Part shown: positions 24,076 through 61,629 of the stretch, in pieces
How the letters are laid out: each line of letters opens with the position of its first letter
Numbering within the stretch: the stretch's first letter is position 1
From: a virus
Lineage: Duplodnaviria > Caudoviricetes
Length of the DNA: 64,000 nucleotides
Virus record (IMG/VR): IMGVR_UViG_3300037010_001838
Strand: one strand, 5' to 3'
Notes under the pieces: generated by a model
Seen by the model: the letters and a program-made list of their open reading frames with translations, nothing else
Told to the model about the DNA's origin: nothing
The model's database searches: none
Made by a program: the position numbers and the translations under genes

Positions 24076-24418
24076 GCTGAAGTTGTTCTATTTGAACTTG
24101 GATCGCTCGACGTTTCATTTGGTTAATTGCGATCACTTGTTTAAGTTCCGAGACTGGAATAAACTTGTCTATTTTATATTCAACTTCTGCAATTCCAATT
24201 CCAATTCCAGAAACTTCTTCGTACATGTAGTCACAACCCTGAAACATCTCTTCTATGTTTGGACATGTACTGTGAATTCCGGTGGTGTTCATTTGCGGCG
24301 ACCAATAAGGGCGTCCACCTGTACCATGATCAACCAACGCAAATATATCATTTCCGTAGTTTTTGTCAATTCCAACAATTACATATCCGATAAACATTTC
24401 ATTCTCCAGTCTCTTCAA
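24056..24418 (-). CDS. Hypothetical protein
   Basis: ORF coupled to the RNA ligase stop. Confidence 0.65.
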   Translation of the reverse strand: MKRLENEMFIGYVIVGIDKNYGNDIFALVDHGTGGRPYWSPQMNTTGIHSTCPNIEEMFQGCDYMYEEVSGIGIGIAEVEYKIDKFIPVSELKQVIAINQMKRRAIQVQIEQLQRELDEI

Positions 24419-25526
24419 TTTTCATATCTTTAAATCCCAATTCTTTCCACTTACTCTTCATGAACTGTTTGTAGTCAGGACTCTTCCCAAGATACAAATT
24501 CATTACACGAGAGAAATACATCGGTGAAACTTCAGCCTGACCTTTAACAGCATAGTCTTTTCGGTCAAGGTGTTTGTTCATTTCATAGAACGTCTCAACT
24601 TCATTTACCATGCTGTTAAACATATGATCAACCTTCACCTGCATTTGATCAATCATCATCATTGCAACAGCATCAGTATAGAACATTCCACGAAGATCAT
24701 CAACACCTTCATCAAGAATACACTCAAACAATCGACGAGGATTGTTGACAGAATCTTTCGCGTGGTGCAAGGAAATGTATTCATCACACTTCACTTTGAC
24801 GAATTTGCCCTGTTGATACTCAATCACAAATCCTTCAACACCATGCATTAAGGCGACTGATTCAACGAATGATGTCGTAGATTCTACGTCAATAACGTCA
24901 ACCCAGTGATTCAACACATTGGGGTAATCCACCAGTTCGTCTTTATTAACAAAACGACCGGTTTTGTTGTAGCGAATGTTTAGTACAGTGAGGTGAGTTT
25001 CAGGATAGCCAATAACGATTCTATTTTCGGGACCACATAGTTCCATGTTGACTGTTAGATCAGCATGAGCCAGGTCCAATAGTTCATCACTGAACGATTT
25101 GTTTTTTGACAATAAAGCATATGCTTGTGCCACTTGATTAGAGAACAAAGAAGTTTTTGATTTAATACCCAACCTGTTGTTGTGAAGGAACGTTGAGATT
25201 AAACTACCATCCTTTTTCACCATGATCTGTTTTGTGTTAGAAAAGTCAATATCCATGGTGAATGGATTCTCACGCCAGTTGAAGAATTTGGGTAATACCC
25301 AAGAAGCCAATCTGACCGGCTGAGCATTCTCCCCTTGATTGGTGACTTCAAACAAATGACCACGACATTCCAGTGCATCAGGAAGAAGAAAATCAGAATA
25401 AGAAGCAAGGCGATACGTAAAACACCGATACCAGTTGTTGTCCAGTTGTTGGTCGACAAAGTAGAAGGCTTCGTTATTCACAAGAGCCATCAAGTTGTTA
25501 TACAATTCAGTCTGACGTTCATTCAT
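24399..25526 (-). CDS. rnlA: T4 Rnl1-like RNA ligase
   Basis: FTYRLASY, ECRG, PKFFN, motif I KKDGSLIS, EGFVI, VKVKCDEY, LH; ATG 25526 with SD GGAG. Confidence 0.88.
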   Translation of the reverse strand: MNERQTELYNNLMALVNNEAFYFVDQQLDNNWYRCFTYRLASYSDFLLPDALECRGHLFEVTNQGENAQPVRLASWVLPKFFNWRENPFTMDIDFSNTKQIMVKKDGSLISTFLHNNRLGIKSKTSLFSNQVAQAYALLSKNKSFSDELLDLAHADLTVNMELCGPENRIVIGYPETHLTVLNIRYNKTGRFVNKDELVDYPNVLNHWVDVIDVESTTSFVESVALMHGVEGFVIEYQQGKFVKVKCDEYISLHHAKDSVNNPRRLFECILDEGVDDLRGMFYTDAVAMMMIDQMQVKVDHMFNSMVNEVETFYEMNKHLDRKDYAVKGQAEVSPMYFSRVMNLYLGKSPDYKQFMKSKWKELGFKDMKIEETGE

Positions 25527-25929
25527 GTAAGATTCTCCAAGAGTTGTCGTAATATACGCTAAAAAGTTGTTGGGGTCAACGTGTGGTATCATACACACCA
25601 TCAAGCGGAGGAAACCATAATGTCCAAAAAAGATCCAACGACCACGTACACTCCCAAAACGCTTATTGGAGGAGATAATGAATGCTTCCAGTTGAACGAA
25701 ACAGATGTGGCTTTATTGGTTGAGCACGTTAATGGTTGTAGTGAAAAATCTTCGCATCATTCCTTGGGAGGATAATGCGAAGAAGGGGAACAAGTTTGAG
25801 TGTTAAGATTTTCTGGCGGTGCTCTTAATTTGATCTTTCAAATACATCAAGTCGGTAAAGTTTTTCACCAACGCAGTACTTGTTCCACAGTGCAGGAACA
25901 TTATCTACCAATTAGGAGAATGAGTCAAC

Positions 25930-30398: not shown

Positions 30399-30474
30399 GG
30401 GCCTGTAGCTCAGAGGAAGTAGCAGGGTGCTCATAACGCCAAGGTCGAGGTATCGTAATCCTCCAGGCCCACCA
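30399..30474 (+). tRNA. tRNA-CAU, probably Ile2 (or Met), atypical T-loop
   Basis: Acceptor GGGCCTG/CAGGCCC-ACCA; loop CTCATAA. Confidence 0.75.
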
Positions 30475-30590: not shown

Positions 30591-30910
30591 GCCCCGATGG
30601 TGAAATAGGTAGACACAAGGGATCGCATGACGCTAGTCCCCCTCAATTGGAAACTTTGAGTAAACTATGGGTTAATTCGGGAGAGCCTTTAAAATGGCAA
30701 TCGCGAGCCAAGCAAGTGATACATCACTTGAAGGTGTAGAGACTACTGGAGAGGTTTAGTCCTCTTAATAACCAGCTTTGAACGCCCATTACCTGACCAA
30801 ATGATGTTGAAGGTAAAGAGATAGTCCGGGCTTGAAGGAAACTTCGAGACACAACCGCTTAAAATCCCTCGCTTTCGAGCGTGCCAGTTCAAATCTGGCT
30901 CGGGGCACCA
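30591..30910 (+). tRNA. tRNA-Leu(UAA) interrupted by a group I intron
   Basis: Exon 1 GCCCCGATGGTGAAATAGGTAGACACAAGGGA; exon 2 CTTAAAATCCCT...TCGGGGCACCA. Confidence 0.85.
30623..30857 (+). mobile_element. Group I self-splicing intron, ~235 nt, no ORF
   Basis: Core elements GGCAATCGCGAGCCAAGC, GAAGGTGTAGAGACTA, GGTAAAGAGATAGTCC; IGS AGTCCC; GAAA-capped P9; terminal G 30857. Confidence 0.85.
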
Positions 30911-46266: not shown

Positions 46267-46575
46267 TAAAATAATATTGATGGTTTCGTATTAAACGGTC
46301 AGTTTCTCGTGTCGTTTGATGTTGGGTATGGGATATTCTCCACAAAACTCAATTTTTGGTTTTGTTTATATTGTTTAGAACTTTAACGTGAAGAGTGTAA
46401 CTCATTATGATGTTTACTTATTGTGTAATATATAGGTAATTATATACAAAAGACGATAAAGTATTAACAGAAATTTAACTGGGAACGTTTTGTGTAGATT
46501 ATCGTATATACAGAACAATCACCTCTTTTTATTTTGAGGTGTGTGTTCCAATAAATGGTCTGAAACGAAGAATAA

Positions 46576-46908
46576 CTATCTCCTCATTTTTGCAATGTCT
46601 TCTGCTTCTTCTTGAGAGAAAACTGGAATAGCGTTACTTTTGTGCATTGTACTAATCCCTACAATCTTATCACCTGTATAAACGGGTGATGGAATTTTTG
46701 CTGTATCTCCAATCGTTGGTTTGTGACTATTAATTGGAGGTGGTAGTCTGTCTTCAGGGATTCCTAATTTATATGTTGATTTTGGAGGAGGAGAATCTGG
46801 ATTACATTTCCATTTCTGGTTAATGTAATCCGTCATCGCCTTATCGGCCTTTTGTTTCGCTGATGATTTCTTTTTCCGTTTAGATGAAGACTTCATGTAC
46901 ACAATCAT
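46576..46908 (-). CDS. Basic phage protein
   Basis: YTGDKIVGISTMHKSNAIPVFSQEEAEDIAKMRR. Confidence 0.75.
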   Translation of the reverse strand: MIVYMKSSSKRKKKSSAKQKADKAMTDYINQKWKCNPDSPPPKSTYKLGIPEDRLPPPINSHKPTIGDTAKIPSPVYTGDKIVGISTMHKSNAIPVFSQEEAEDIAKMRR

Positions 46909-50550: not shown

Positions 50551-51495
50551 TAGTAACACGCTTAATTGAAACGTCAGTTCGTGAATATTAGACACAAGTT
50601 GTTTGCTTGAATCTTCCCACCACGGTGAACAATTCGATGTAACTATTTGATTCGCTGCGGATATTTCCGATGAATTAACAAAAAACATTTTAACAATTTT
50701 AAAGTTGGTTCGTTGACGTTTTTCGTTTACAGCTAACTTTCCTCCTTGTTCTAGTCTAATTTCAAAAACATTAGATGGGTCGTGATTATAGTGAGCAATA
50801 TACAAAACAGACACGTCTATATTCTGAACCACTTCTATTTTATCGGAGATAGATTTTCCAAGGAACATTCTCCACCCCGGCCAATTCTCAAACACACCTT
50901 CTGGAGAAAGAGGAATATTCAACTGTGGATGTTCTCGGACCCACAACTTATATTCCTCTGGTGAAGACAAGTTTAAAGAATGAACAAACTTCATTGTTTC
51001 TTCTAATGAAAGTCTTGGTTCCGTTTGTTTAGAATAGTGGATATACTTTGAACCTAAAAAATCTTTCCATATCGTCCATTCTGGATAAACGAATTCTGGA
51101 TATCGTGGAATAAAACAGGTATTTGTCTCTTTGTGCCAAGCCCTCCATTGATGACTAGAACCAAGTTCTAATTTCAAAGCAAACTGTTTCGCGTCTTCAT
51201 AAGATAGGTATGGAATGGGTCTTGTTCCCAAAAAGTCAGTATCAGATTTCCACTCTCCGCGTATTGCATATGAACACTGGGGATTAGCTGGAATAAACTT
51301 TGGACGAATCAAACGTCCTTTAAGTGGACCCTTCTTATATCGTAGTTTTGCAAATTTTAACCACTGACGATAGTTCTCAAATCCCAAACGATTTACCCAC
51401 ACTTTTGCGTCTTGATATGGTATAAAATCTTTTTTGGGTTGTCCATTATTGTTTCTTACTTTCATAAAATCAAATGGTTCTTTGTTTTCTGACAT
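50539..51495 (-). CDS. Protein with phage integrase-repeat-like units
   Basis: Three repeats SYEDAK...L.L.S..QW...IP..PE.VY.EW..W.DFLG. Confidence 0.65.
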   Translation of the reverse strand: MSENKEPFDFMKVRNNNGQPKKDFIPYQDAKVWVNRLGFENYRQWLKFAKLRYKKGPLKGRLIRPKFIPANPQCSYAIRGEWKSDTDFLGTRPIPYLSYEDAKQFALKLELGSSHQWRAWHKETNTCFIPRYPEFVYPEWTIWKDFLGSKYIHYSKQTEPRLSLEETMKFVHSLNLSSPEEYKLWVREHPQLNIPLSPEGVFENWPGWRMFLGKSISDKIEVVQNIDVSVLYIAHYNHDPSNVFEIRLEQGGKLAVNEKRQRTNFKIVKMFFVNSSEISAANQIVTSNCSPWWEDSSKQLVSNIHELTFQLSVLLLIA

Positions 51496-54327: not shown

Positions 54328-54540
54328 TTAATTTGAAACTGTTAGAAGAGCGGGGCACCACTCAGGTGCTCTATCTCTTTCATACCAACAATTTGAAATT
54401 ATTTTATTGTTAACTCCACAGACTACTTGTATTCCTCGGTCATATTCTTCTGGCGTATTACAGTAGTAATCAGTTATTAATTGAGTACATCCTTTACAGT
54501 GATATGTAATTGTCATTGATGGTCCAAAATTGTTTTCCAT
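54328..54540 (-). CDS. Small Cys-rich protein
   Basis: CKGC...C...PEWCP. Confidence 0.55.
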   Translation of the reverse strand: MENNFGPSMTITYHCKGCTQLITDYYCNTPEEYDRGIQVVCGVNNKIISNCWYERDRAPEWCPALLTVSN

Positions 54541-56798
54541 TATCTCACCTTTGTTGTTATGTCTTCATACACCCGATTGTGAGTGTTATTCACTCTAATA
54601 AACGTTGCACGTTTTGAAAGTTCCTTTAGTGTTTTACTTCCTGTATATGTACACGTACTCCGAACCCCACCTAGAATATGGTTAATTGTATCTTTAACTG
54701 GTCCTCGATATGGAAGTTCGATTGTTCGTCCTTCACTCGAGCGATATTCAGCCAAACCCCCACTGTGAGCTTCCATTGCTGTAGATGAACTCATCCCGTA
54801 GAATTGGACAAACTTACGCTCTACTTCCAAACACTCAAGAGAAGAACCATCAATATCTTTTATAACTTCGTTAGTTTTATACCACTTCGAACTTACTTCA
54901 CCTCCACCTTCGTCGTGTCCAGCGAACATTCCACCACTCATTACAAAATCAGCGCCACCTGCAAATGCTTTTGCAAAGTCTCCAGGAGTATTACATCCCC
55001 CATCGGAACACAACCTTCCGCCTAATCCATGAACAGCATCAGCACATTCTATAATTGCACTCAATTGGGGAAAACCAATTCCAGACACTAACCTTGTGGT
55101 ACAAACTGAATTGTGAACAATCATGTTGTTTGCAATGAAACTGTGGGTTGGGTGATCAATTTCCAAATCGTAGACGGGAACCTCACACTCTGTTGGGTTT
55201 TCAATTTCAAGTATTTTTATAACCTGATAATGTGAAAGATGTCTTTTTTTGTGAGAGGTCGCCAGAAAACTTCGATATCCATCTTTTCGGGGGTGTTGCA
55301 TAGGATATGAAGACCGTTTCCCGTTGTTTGACATATTTGGGAAACTCCCAAATATATTAAACGTAATCCAGCTGAATAGTTCCATGAGTTGTTGTGACGT
55401 GTTGTTAAAATTAACCTGGCCTTCTTTTGTAATGTGGCCGTCACTATCAACTAATCCATCATACAATCCCCGCAAATATTCTGTGTTGGTGCACATGAAT
55501 TGGTCTGGAAGATGTTTTTCATGGAACTTTCCAAACTGTTGGAAAAATTCTTCCCACTGTTTACTATACAAGGTGATCGTGGTCAACGTTTTCCGTTTAT
55601 TAGAACATACTGGGATTTTACCCGTAACCATCTCAACAGCAGACATTAATTTAACTACATGATGTTGATCTCTTGAGTTTATATACCACTCAACACCTTC
55701 AGAAAAACTTGAAAATCCCCTGCTGTTGGTTCCTTTTGTTTTTCTTGAAGTACCATCTCCAAGAAAAAAACCAAACACATAACCAGTGTTGTAATCAGAT
55801 TTAACAATAGTGTTATAATTATCCAAATGCTCTTCTCGTATAAAATAACTTGAAATATCGATATGAAAACTATCTGGTGTTTCCCAATTAATATTGATGG
55901 GAAGTAAAGCTACATCTTGTCGTATTTCACTCACCGGTTTCCATTTTATTTTTTCCTCTCCCAAACGAGTAGGAACCTCCAGCGCCTTTTTATACCCTTT
56001 GCTTTGTAGTGTTGTAATACTAATAGAATTTAGATCACCTACGTAACAATGATGGTCAGGAGTTAGTCTCAACGGAATGTTGAAGTGATCATGTTTTATC
56101 TGTGTTGTTTTCTTATATCCTGTGGTATAAGCGGATAACACAGTTGCTGGTTCTCCAGTACTCGTAATTATACGATCCCCAGGTTGAACATCTTTGATAT
56201 TTTTATAAACACCACTGGACATTAAAATTCGAGCATCACCCGTTAAACACCCACTGCCTACTCCAACCTTGATGATATCTGCACCAGATAATACTAATTG
56301 TTCTGCCATTTCAGGTGTAACAACGTTACCAACAAGAAGAGTTGTGTTTGGATATTTGTCTCGTAATTTAGTTACAGTAGATACAAAAGTTTCTGTATAC
56401 CCATTAGCAACGTCAACACACACATTTAAAGGAGGTCTGCCAAACATTTCGATGAAGTGTTCAAGCTTATCGAGGTCACTTTGAGACGTTCCAACTGAAT
56501 AAAAAATATATTGTTCAAATGAGGGATTGTTTTTATAAAAATCTACAAGTTGAACTACTGGATAATGTTTATGTAATGCTACCATCATTTTAAATTCAGC
56601 AAATCGTTCCGCCATTTCAAAAGTTCCAACTCCATCCATATTTGACGCTATAATTGGAATACCAGTCCATTGTTGGTGAGAGTATTTGAATGTGAACGAC
56701 CTTTCAAGAGACACGTCTTTGCGTGAAGTTAGTGATGACCTTTTTGGAATAAGTAGCACATCACCAAAATCCAATTTAACATCCTCTACTATTCTCAT
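54540..56798 (-). CDS. guaC: GMP reductase with intein
   Basis: KLDFGDVLLIPKRS, ASNMDGVGTF, DVANGY, KVGVGSG|SVCTTR, FYGMSS, YRSSEG. Confidence 0.92.
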   Translation of the reverse strand: MRIVEDVKLDFGDVLLIPKRSSLTSRKDVSLERSFTFKYSHQQWTGIPIIASNMDGVGTFEMAERFAEFKMMVALHKHYPVVQLVDFYKNNPSFEQYIFYSVGTSQSDLDKLEHFIEMFGRPPLNVCVDVANGYTETFVSTVTKLRDKYPNTTLLVGNVVTPEMAEQLVLSGADIIKVGVGSGCLTGDARILMSSGVYKNIKDVQPGDRIITSTGEPATVLSAYTTGYKKTTQIKHDHFNIPLRLTPDHHCYVGDLNSISITTLQSKGYKKALEVPTRLGEEKIKWKPVSEIRQDVALLPININWETPDSFHIDISSYFIREEHLDNYNTIVKSDYNTGYVFGFFLGDGTSRKTKGTNSRGFSSFSEGVEWYINSRDQHHVVKLMSAVEMVTGKIPVCSNKRKTLTTITLYSKQWEEFFQQFGKFHEKHLPDQFMCTNTEYLRGLYDGLVDSDGHITKEGQVNFNNTSQQLMELFSWITFNIFGSFPNMSNNGKRSSYPMQHPRKDGYRSFLATSHKKRHLSHYQVIKILEIENPTECEVPVYDLEIDHPTHSFIANNMIVHNSVCTTRLVSGIGFPQLSAIIECADAVHGLGGRLCSDGGCNTPGDFAKAFAGGADFVMSGGMFAGHDEGGGEVSSKWYKTNEVIKDIDGSSLECLEVERKFVQFYGMSSSTAMEAHSGGLAEYRSSEGRTIELPYRGPVKDTINHILGGVRSTCTYTGSKTLKELSKRATFIRVNNTHNRVYEDITTKVR
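55110..56249 (-). mobile_element. 380-aa intein with LAGLIDADG-type endonuclease domain
   Basis: Starts CLTGDARI, ends IANNMIVHN, +1 Ser; blocks GFFLGDG and GLVDSDG. Confidence 0.92.
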
Positions 56799-59354: not shown

Positions 59355-59450
59355 ATGAACACAAACGGATTAGGTTATTGTCTATCACTCGGGTCTTTAT
59401 CCATATTGGATAAGAGCCAGGTCGCCGTTTGGGGAATTACCAAGATGTAA
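59355..59450 (+). CDS. 31-aa attenuator leader peptide MNTNGLGYCLSLGSLSILDKSQVAVWGITKM
   Basis: SD AAAGGA at 59341, ATG 59355, TAA 59448; overlaps attenuator segments. Confidence 0.8.
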   Translation: MNTNGLGYCLSLGSLSILDKSQVAVWGITKM

Positions 59451-59503
59451 AGAGAAAAAATCCCAAAAGAAAGCCTGGCTCGAAAGACCCAGGCTTTTTT
59501 GTT
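59392..59503 (+). promoter_or_regulatory. Transcription attenuator (1:2 protector, 2:3 antiterminator, 3:4 terminator)
   Basis: 1:2 = 59392-402/59408-18; 2:3 = GAGCCAGG 59414-21/CCTGGCTC 59474-81 plus TTTGGGG/TCCCAAA; 3:4 = AAAGCCTGG 59470-78/CCAGGCTTT 59489-97 plus T-tract. Confidence 0.8.
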
Positions 59504-60600: not shown

Positions 60601-60691
60601 GGAGAGTAGCGTCCATGGTGGACAAACTGCCTAGAAAGCAGTCGCCGGCATCTAAGTAGAGCCGCTGGTTCGATTCCTGTACTCTCCGCCA
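60601..60691 (+). tRNA. tRNA-Ser(AGA), 8/4 fold
   Basis: 8-bp acceptor GGAGAGTA/TACTCTCC; CTAGAAA loop; long V-arm; G73. Confidence 0.8.
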
Positions 60692-60696
60692 CATTT

Positions 60697-60780
60697 CCGC
60701 AGGTGGCTTAGGTAAATTGGTACAGCCCCTATCTTCAAACGGTAGTGCTTTTGTGGGTTCGAATCCCTCCCTGCGGACCA
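60697..60780 (+). tRNA. tRNA-Leu(CAA), expanded D-loop
   Basis: CTATC-TTCAAAC-GGTAG; paralogue of 60510. Confidence 0.75.
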
Positions 60781-60792
60781 GACAGTTAAATT

Positions 60793-60876
60793 GCCCCCGG
60801 TGACAAATGCAAATTGGTACAGCTACTGCGCTAAGAACACAGGTTTTTACGGGTTTGACTCCCGTCTGGGGCACCA
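60793..60876 (+). tRNA. Second, slightly degenerate tRNA-Leu(AAG)
   Basis: Near copy of 60062 with TTTGA T-loop and a stem mismatch. Confidence 0.6.
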
Positions 60877-60882
60877 AAATTA

Positions 60883-60969
60883 CGAGTGTGGTGTAATTAG
60901 GTAGATGTAACAGGCTTAAACCCTGCCTGCCTGCCGAAAGGTCGTACCGGTTCGAATCCGGTCACTCGG
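60883..60969 (+). tRNA. tRNA-Leu(UAA), long variable arm, no encoded CCA
   Basis: CAGG-CTTAAAC-CCTG; GGTTCGAATCC. Confidence 0.7.
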
Positions 60970-61029
60970 ACTTTTGTTGATATTTTCGTCATTTTAATAT
61001 ATCATTTAATATATGATGAGAGACTAAAA

Positions 61030-61533
61030 ATGAACAGACATTATCAGAATTATCTTTTTAAGAAGTATCCTGCTCTATATAAAGAACACACTCTTCCGAT
61101 GAGTGAAACTTGTATGTGTTGGGGGGTTACTTGTGGAGATGGTTGGTTTAATCTTATTAATCAATTGTCTGAATTTTTGTGCAGCGATTGGATCTATGAG
61201 AAATACACATACGATCGTATGGTGACTAACCTTGGTCAACTTTTGTATCCAGGTAGTCCTGAAAGTGATTTTAACCCTATTATCACAACTGAGTTGATTG
61301 CCGCAGTCAAAGTAAGGATGGATGATGCAGAACTTTCGATTCCTGTTGCTCGGCAAGTGAAAGAAAAATTTGGAACTCTTCGGTTTTATGTTTCTAACGC
61401 AACTGAAGAACAATATTCAGCAATTCAGTTTGCTGAATATCAAAGTAAAATGATTTGTGAAGTGTGTGGTGCACGAGGAACTGTGGGTGGCCGGGGTTGG
61501 ATTTCAACTCGGTGTATTAAACACAGAAAGTGA
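61030..61533 (+). CDS. Phage protein inside the tRNA cluster
   Basis: CGDGWFNLI...QVKEKFGTLRFY...ICEVCG...RC. Confidence 0.8.
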   Translation: MNRHYQNYLFKKYPALYKEHTLPMSETCMCWGVTCGDGWFNLINQLSEFLCSDWIYEKYTYDRMVTNLGQLLYPGSPESDFNPIITTELIAAVKVRMDDAELSIPVARQVKEKFGTLRFYVSNATEEQYSAIQFAEYQSKMICEVCGARGTVGGRGWISTRCIKHRK

Positions 61534-61538
61534 TATAT

Positions 61539-61629
61539 GGAAGGTAGTGTCTATGGCAGACAAACTGTTTTGAAAGCAGTCGCCGGCATCTAAGTAGAGC
61601 CGCTGGTTCGATTCCTGTACCTTCCGCCA
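61539..61629 (+). tRNA. tRNA-Ser(UGA), 8/4 fold
   Basis: GGAAGGTA/TACCTTCC; TTTGAAA loop; V- and T-arms identical to 60601. Confidence 0.8.

Follow-up and report, generated by a model that had tools for sequence, protein, structure and literature searches.

Paralogous phage tRNA-Ser genes with AGA and UGA anticodons, assigned to the 8/4 type through covariation in their family

Results

Two closely related tRNA-Ser genes in a phage tRNA array

The DNA analyzed here is a 64-kb stretch of phage sequence (hereafter the window), with a G+C content of 38%, in which ARAGORN detects 12 tRNA genes. Two of these, both on the plus strand and both 91 nt long, are serine tRNA genes: tRNA-Ser(AGA), at 60601..60691, and its paralogue tRNA-Ser(UGA), at 61539..61629. 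We assign both to the 8/4 type, i.e., to tRNAs with eight acceptor pairs and four T-stem positions. The AGA gene is identified by ARAGORN, Rfam, direct reading of the sequence and covariation within its family; the UGA gene is identified by ARAGORN, Rfam and its identity to the AGA gene. The two are closest to each other, at 87.5% identity.

The acceptor strands of the AGA gene lie at 60601-60608 and 60680-60687, the D-arm at 60611-60623, the anticodon arm at 60626-60642 with the anticodon at 60633-60635, the long V-arm at 60646-60664, and the T-arm at 60665-60679; G73 is at 60688 and CCA at 60689-60691. The pair that defines the 8/4 type, namely the eighth acceptor pair, is formed by A8 (60608, plus strand) and U65 (60680). 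In the UGA gene this pair corresponds to 61546 and 61618, and the anticodon is at 61571-61573. According to ARAGORN the anticodon comes unusually early in both genes, at position 33.

Direct reading of the sequence gives eight Watson-Crick acceptor pairs in each gene (GGAGAGTA/TACTCTCC and GGAAGGTA/TACCTTCC). In both, a connector of two nucleotides leads to a compact D-arm (stem 4-5 bp, loop 3-5 nt, GG kept), and the two-nucleotide connector AA leads from there to an anticodon stem of 5 bp, in which the would-be sixth pair is A·C. The V-arm is a 19-nt hairpin whose closing C:G pair adjoins the T-stem, and both genes have G73 and an encoded CCA. The T-stem consists of C-G, U·U, G-C and G-C, that is, of standard pairs at three of its four positions. 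Thus the length of the genes, their eight-pair acceptor stems, compact D-arms and shared V- and T-arms are as the original prediction described them, and the 4-bp T-stem that it also described is right in its four positions but has U·U at the second, leaving three standard pairs.

The paralogues are distinguished by compensatory exchanges in acceptor pairs 4 and 5, which the original prediction had correctly pointed out, by a compensatory replacement of C-G by U-A in the D-stem, and by a change from C-G to U·G in the anticodon stem. Between nt 38, in the 3′ strand of the anticodon stem, and nt 82, in the 3′ acceptor strand, there is no difference, and the V-arm and T-arm are therefore the same in both.

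Against the Rfam tRNA model the UGA gene scores 39.1 bits, above the gathering score, while the best Rfam model for the AGA gene is that of tRNA-Sec, with 36.5 bits. We rejected an identity of either gene as tRNA-Sec (RF01852), because the anticodon is wrong, the branch formed by acceptor and T-stems has 12 bp, and both genes fall below the gathering score of 47. The likeness to bacterial tRNA-Sec (selC, 8/5) lies in the 8-bp acceptor stem, the long D-stem with a small loop, the long V-arm and the presumed charging by SerRS; in contrast, tRNA-Sec has a 13-bp branch and a UCA anticodon, whereas the window genes have a branch of 12 and serine anticodons. With canonical class II bacterial tRNA-Ser (7/5) they share the long V-arm, G73, G1-C72, G2-C71 and A3-U70, but canonical tRNA-Ser has unpaired U8 and G9, a large D-loop and a 5-bp T-stem. 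From their sequences, the AGA and UGA genes are real and very probably functional phage tRNA genes.

Genomic setting and strain variation

Two further tRNA genes of the array, detected by ARAGORN and Rfam on the plus strand, lie between the paralogues, at 60697-60780 and 60882-60971. ARAGORN calls the former tRNA-Lys(ctt) and places its anticodon at position 37; visual inspection shows that the loop, TTCAAAC, can also be read with the anticodon CAA (Leu), and because the loop is readable in two ways the Lys assignment looks unreliable. The ORF list also places a cysteine-rich ORF of 167 aa between the serine tRNA genes (61030..61533, plus strand), which has many strain variants and gave no Pfam or PHROG match. 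Two stretches of it, 61106-61181 and 61340-61392, recur at about 85% identity in other contigs from the same metagenomes, and so it may have paralogues or be a mobile gene. Just upstream of the array, at 59355-59500 on the plus strand, is a 31-codon ORF followed by a strong terminator-like hairpin; this is the leader to which the original prediction referred, and its serine codons are UCA, UCU, UCC and AGC, one of each.

Elsewhere in the window, an RNA ligase of the T4 Rnl1 type, with both its N- and C-terminal domains, is encoded at 24399-25604 on the minus strand. T4 Rnl1 repairs tRNA cleaved by a host anticodon nuclease, a function that bears on a phage carrying many tRNAs. An ORF of 751 aa (54540-56798, minus strand) has an IMPDH/GMP-reductase domain split by weak intein/Hint and LAGLIDADG matches, and is probably, from these matches, an intein-bearing gene of nucleotide metabolism. 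A further protein encoded in the window resembles a tail fibre and carries an endosialidase-chaperone domain. A group I intron match, which passes the gathering score with 61.1 bits, lies at 30619-30848 on the plus strand, about 150 nt downstream of a tRNA-Met gene at 30399-30474.

Across most of its length the window matches, at 97-99% identity, the initial 42 kb of IMG/VR record UViG_3300035181_001013 (G001; 178,796 bp, CheckV completeness 52%), and this close match points to a jumbo phage. Whole-genome checks were run on G001, as a 98%-identical relative that is about 52% complete. Both serine tRNA genes are present in it with identical sequence, among 42 tRNAs detectable by ARAGORN, and it carries a tRNA-Arg(ACG). 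Beside the two 8/4 genes, G001 has a third tRNA-Ser(UGA), beyond the equivalent of the window at 51011-51098, which is canonical 7/5, with U8, a large D-loop and a 5-bp T-stem. About 4.7 kb past the right end of the window, at 46568-46641, it also encodes a 74-nt tRNA with a CUA anticodon, labeled tRNA-Pyl by ARAGORN; this is possibly an amber-suppressor-type tRNA of the phage lineage.

A search of sequencing runs matched the DNA of the window in microbial-mat and sediment metagenomes; no RNA run was listed. Contigs from three other studies show zero variants in the AGA gene and two, both harmless, in the UGA gene: T10C, in the connector, and A26G, by which an A-U becomes a G·U and the pair is kept. 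In contrast, the 504-nt ORF between the genes has at least 14 variants in the same contigs, and the ORF plus spacers about 20. Such a sequence pattern, with few variants in the tRNAs and many in the intervening DNA, is consistent with purifying selection on both serine tRNAs.

A family of homologous tRNA genes

A BLAST search of GenBank phages with the window tRNA returned three Aeromonas records only, and wider recall was obtained via intermediate queries. Stepwise in this manner, the homologous tRNA type was found in more than 500 GenBank phage records, most of which annotate it as plain tRNA-Ser. The carriers include T5-like Aeromonas and Klebsiella phages, Felixounavirus, Mooglevirus, Acinetobacter Saclayvirus, a Klebsiella phage of the Schitoviridae, and Streptomyces phages; the tRNA-Ser(UGA) of Aeromonas phage TS3 is 77-80% identical to the window genes. 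Matches to Acj61 and a Rhizobium phage in the first BLAST search were to other tRNAs of the array, not to the serine genes.

In IMG/VR, an overly stringent first pattern matched 4 loci. Two IUPAC scans, in which positions 1-31 and 63-76 were left free and the T-loop and the GCC that opens the V-arm were fixed, supplied many extra loci. We kept sequences whose anticodon stem was paired, whose anticodon was UGA or AGA and came early, and whose discriminator was G73 or U73; this yielded 107 distinct sequences, from cultured phages and IMG/VR together, which aligned cleanly. Canonical tRNA-Leu(UAG) genes caught by the pattern for the AGA loop were removed by the register of the anticodon stem and the discriminator. 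Two loci were left out of the family set: L023, from Acinetobacter AB-Navy-v2, is a 7/5 tRNA-Ser of canonical form, and L017 resembles a copy in decay.

Covariation of nucleotides 8 and 65

Because A8-U65 competes with G49·U65, the window sequences by themselves are compatible with either an 8/4 or a 7/5 fold. The changes at acceptor pairs 4 and 5 on which the original prediction relied are silent on this choice, since the two genes do not differ at pair 8. The alternative is that the genes encode ordinary 7/5 cloverleaves, in which A8, G9 and N10 form the connector, G49·U65 closes a 5-bp T-stem, and the V-stem is one pair shorter. This is the register that ARAGORN and the Rfam tRNA model draw; both impose it on 8/4 genes.

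The 107 homologues argue against this alternative. At the eighth acceptor pair (alignment columns 9-88) we find AU in 69 sequences, GC in 21, UG in 7, CG in 3, and other combinations in 7; nucleotides 8 and 65 have changed together in 31 sequences, so that four types of pair occur, and this would be unexpected of an unpaired nt 8. At the competing position, 49:65 (columns 72-88), the counts are GU 69, GC 27 and, in 11 sequences, an unpairable G·G. That is, the invariant G49 could pair with nt 65 in 96 of the 107, as the 7/5 fold would have it, but there are zero double changes, because G49 never varies. Only 8:65 is pairable in 10 sequences and only 49:65 in six, the latter being homologues in which 7/5 is the sole pairing register. 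Clustering at 85% identity gives 52 clusters (A:U in 32, G:C in 12, U·G in 2 and C:G in 2), and the type of pair at 8:65 switches within two of them. A tree shows one independent contrast between A8 and G8 on well-supported branches, as against 14 on the best tree; with sequences of about 90 nt it is underpowered, and the short sequences make it weak. Lastly, in both window genes the nearest-neighbor energy of the 8/4 cloverleaf is lower than that of the 7/5 cloverleaf by 1.2 kcal/mol, because the 8/4 fold keeps the A-U pair and the closing C-G of the V-stem in place of one G·U.

The other stems covary as well: 94.9% of cells pair, compared with 72% in shuffled alignments and 40-52% with slid partners. 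The V-stem is among those that covary across the 107 homologues, although the invariance of its closing C is partly imposed, as the IMG/VR patterns fixed GCC there. Acceptor pairs 1-3 are nearly fixed (GC in 98, GC in 105 and AU in 91 of 107) and pairs 4-8 are variable, a pattern that fits serine identity as known from the E. coli literature. In the D-loop G18 and G19 are nearly invariant, and the commonest forms of the D-arm have a stem of 5 bp with a loop of 4 nt (37 sequences) or 3 nt (28). The U·U at the second T-stem position recurs in 25 of the 107 homologues and is thus a trait of the family.

The joint variation of nucleotides 8 and 65, with no double change at 49:65, supports the 8/4 fold for the homologue family, and the window genes have all the architectural features of this family. 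Since 8:65 is A-U in both of them and in their closest relatives, their own 8/4 assignment rests on family homology. Hence the predicted 8/4 fold is borne out, though by evidence other than that first offered for it, and we regard 7/5 cloverleaves as quite improbable.

Discussion

Membership in a published class

An 8/4 class of tRNA-Ser in bacteriophages was reported by Mukai et al. (2017, Nucleic Acids Res 45:2776; PMC5389517), who place it in bacteriophage tRNA clusters; the tRNA-Sec covariance model detects tRNAs of this class. As characterized in that report, the class has a 12-bp acceptor branch split 8/4, a D-arm like that of tRNA-Sec, a long V-arm, and G73 or U73. The window genes have each of these features: an 8-bp acceptor stem with a T-stem of four positions (one of them U·U), and hence a 12-layer 8/4 branch; a short D-arm of the tRNA-Sec kind; and a long V-arm with G73. 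Their anticodons, AGA and UGA, are for serine, which separates (8/4) tRNA-Ser from the recoding allo-tRNAs. The AGA gene was, in addition, also picked up here by the tRNA-Sec model. On the other hand, the anticodon stem is not longer than canonical but has 5 bp in both genes; the published description states the lengthening for the allo-tRNA and selC* groups. On the features so described, rather than by direct alignment, the window genes belong to the published 8/4 tRNA-Ser class.

The original prediction took the 8/4 type to be rare. Its publication for phages (PMC5389517) and its presence in more than 500 GenBank phage records show instead that 8/4 tRNA-Ser is common in phages, and that the window genes are further, fairly ordinary examples. 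Their homologues in cultured phages have the same architecture and an alignable sequence, and those of Pseudomonas and Streptomyces phages include AGA versions; unlike the window genes, they are annotated as tRNA-Ser or unannotated, and they mostly occur in one copy, without an AGA/UGA pair.

Proposed function

We think it likely, with a probability of roughly three in four, that both genes are working phage-encoded 8/4 serine tRNAs supplying the favored UCU and UCA codons. The pair would have arisen by local duplication, followed by a switch between U34 and A34 and by compensatory drift in the stems. In each tRNA the 8-bp acceptor stem, stacked on the four-position T-stem, would keep the usual 12 layers of the acceptor/T helix, and because this helix is preserved we infer that EF-Tu and the ribosome would accept both. 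Host SerRS would charge both through the long V-arm, G73 and the conserved G1-C72, G2-C71 and A3-U70 pairs. Mukai et al. (PMC5389517) and a later review (PMC7609411) report that 8/4 allo-tRNAs are serylated and that E. coli ribosomes use them efficiently. For the UGA tRNA we predict reading of UCA and UCG, to which a modified U34 might add UCU; with A34 unmodified, the AGA tRNA would read essentially UCU. Together they would top up the two UCN codons most used by the phage during infection. The serine codons of the window (UCU 28%, AGU 25%, UCA 23%, UCC 10%, UCG 8% and AGC 6%) fit such a simple supply role, with the AGA tRNA for UCU and the UGA tRNA for UCA and UCG.

It might instead be that the genes are decaying duplicates, or that they specify tRNA-like RNAs with a task outside translation, for instance in regulation or as a decoy to anticodon nucleases of the host. 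Several aberrant tRNA bodies in the neighboring array would agree with this, as would the finding, for some of the allo-tRNA groups covered in PMC5389517, that they are inactive in E. coli and associated with toxin-antitoxin loci. The U·U mismatch in the T-stem could be taken as a sign of decay too, but its recurrence across the family speaks against that. Moreover, in both genes the stems are intact and the cognate serine anticodons, G73 and CCA are in place; both are identical in the 98%-identical G001 and conserved across strains; and every stem of the family shows compensatory evolution. We therefore consider decay or a decoy function very improbable. As far as sequences can tell, these are very probably functional, non-canonical 8/4 serine tRNAs, as had been proposed.

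The wobble adenosine

The AGA anticodon occurs in 19 of the 107 homologues, a proportion that is no estimate of its frequency, because the AGA scan was targeted. These members fall into six clusters, three of which also contain UGA members; such mixed clusters suggest repeated switching between U34 and A34, of which the window pair would be one case. Among cultured phages, Streptomyces phage Dennebes and its relatives have an annotated tRNA-Ser(aga), in about 19 Streptomyces records, and Pseudomonas phages of the PAK_P1-like group have an 8/4 tRNA-Ser(AGA) in about 122 records, mostly unannotated (including our loci L200, L167 and L169). A34 is therefore not unique to the window phage, and with some 120 Pseudomonas and 19 Streptomyces phage records carrying such versions, the presumption that it is rare outside Arg does not hold for phage tRNA-Ser. 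It is not discussed in the main text of PMC5389517.

A further proposal was that A34 of the AGA tRNA is converted to inosine, by host TadA or by an enzyme of the phage, so that one tRNA would read UCU, UCC and UCA. Most genomically encoded A34 tRNAs are indeed converted to I34, and some bacteria have extra A34 tRNAs, such as O. oeni, with four, two of them modified (PMC11066159); G001, moreover, encodes tRNA-Arg(ACG), the normal substrate of TadA. Nevertheless, we found neither of the deaminase domains PF00383 (dCMP/cytidine) and PF14437 (MafB19-type) in the 179-kb, about 52% complete G001, and no deaminase in the window with a scan for the H/C-A-E...PCxxC motif. When 15 A34 anticodons were tried in a single tRNA body, E. 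coli TadA acted on ACG, AUG and AAG alone; modifications aside, the anticodon loop of that body is the tRNA-Arg2 loop (PMC11066159). The loop of its AGA variant would be CUAGAAA, the same as in the window AGA gene. Without inosine, this variant read UCU at 19.7% and UCC at 1.4%, a discrimination of 10:1 or better (PMC11066159), and UCC makes up only 10% of the serine codons of the phage. E. coli TadA may not match the enzyme of the host, and since some bacteria edit extra A34 tRNAs, the host enzyme may do so here; even so, given the deaminase searches and the behavior of E. coli TadA, we regard inosine editing of the AGA tRNA as unlikely.

Wider significance

Taken alone, the window adds little, being one more phage with a published tRNA architecture. 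The set of 107 sequences, in turn, supports by covariation that phage tRNA-Ser forms an eighth acceptor pair, and the comparison indicates that standard annotators misregister or miss 8/4 phage tRNA-Ser genes. More tentatively, the distribution of the AGA versions (the window, about 120 PAK_P1-like records, the Streptomyces phages, and at least six clusters) leads us to entertain, as a broader but still doubtful reading, that phage 8/4 tRNA-Ser(AGA) is a widespread and recurrently evolved natural class with an unmodified wobble A. On that reading the class would be kept because strict reading of UCU suits AT-rich phage genes, and the 8/4 body may let it slip past host enzymes, tRNA-cleaving or tRNA-modifying, that check nt 8 and the D-arm.

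The residual value of the present case thus lies in the recurrence of the A34 variant in tractable phages. A natural tRNA with unmodified A34 represents a state described as exceedingly rare, and because A34 serine tRNAs recur in cultured phages of the PAK_P1-like and FlowerPower-like groups, it is there that natural unmodified A34 would be testable.
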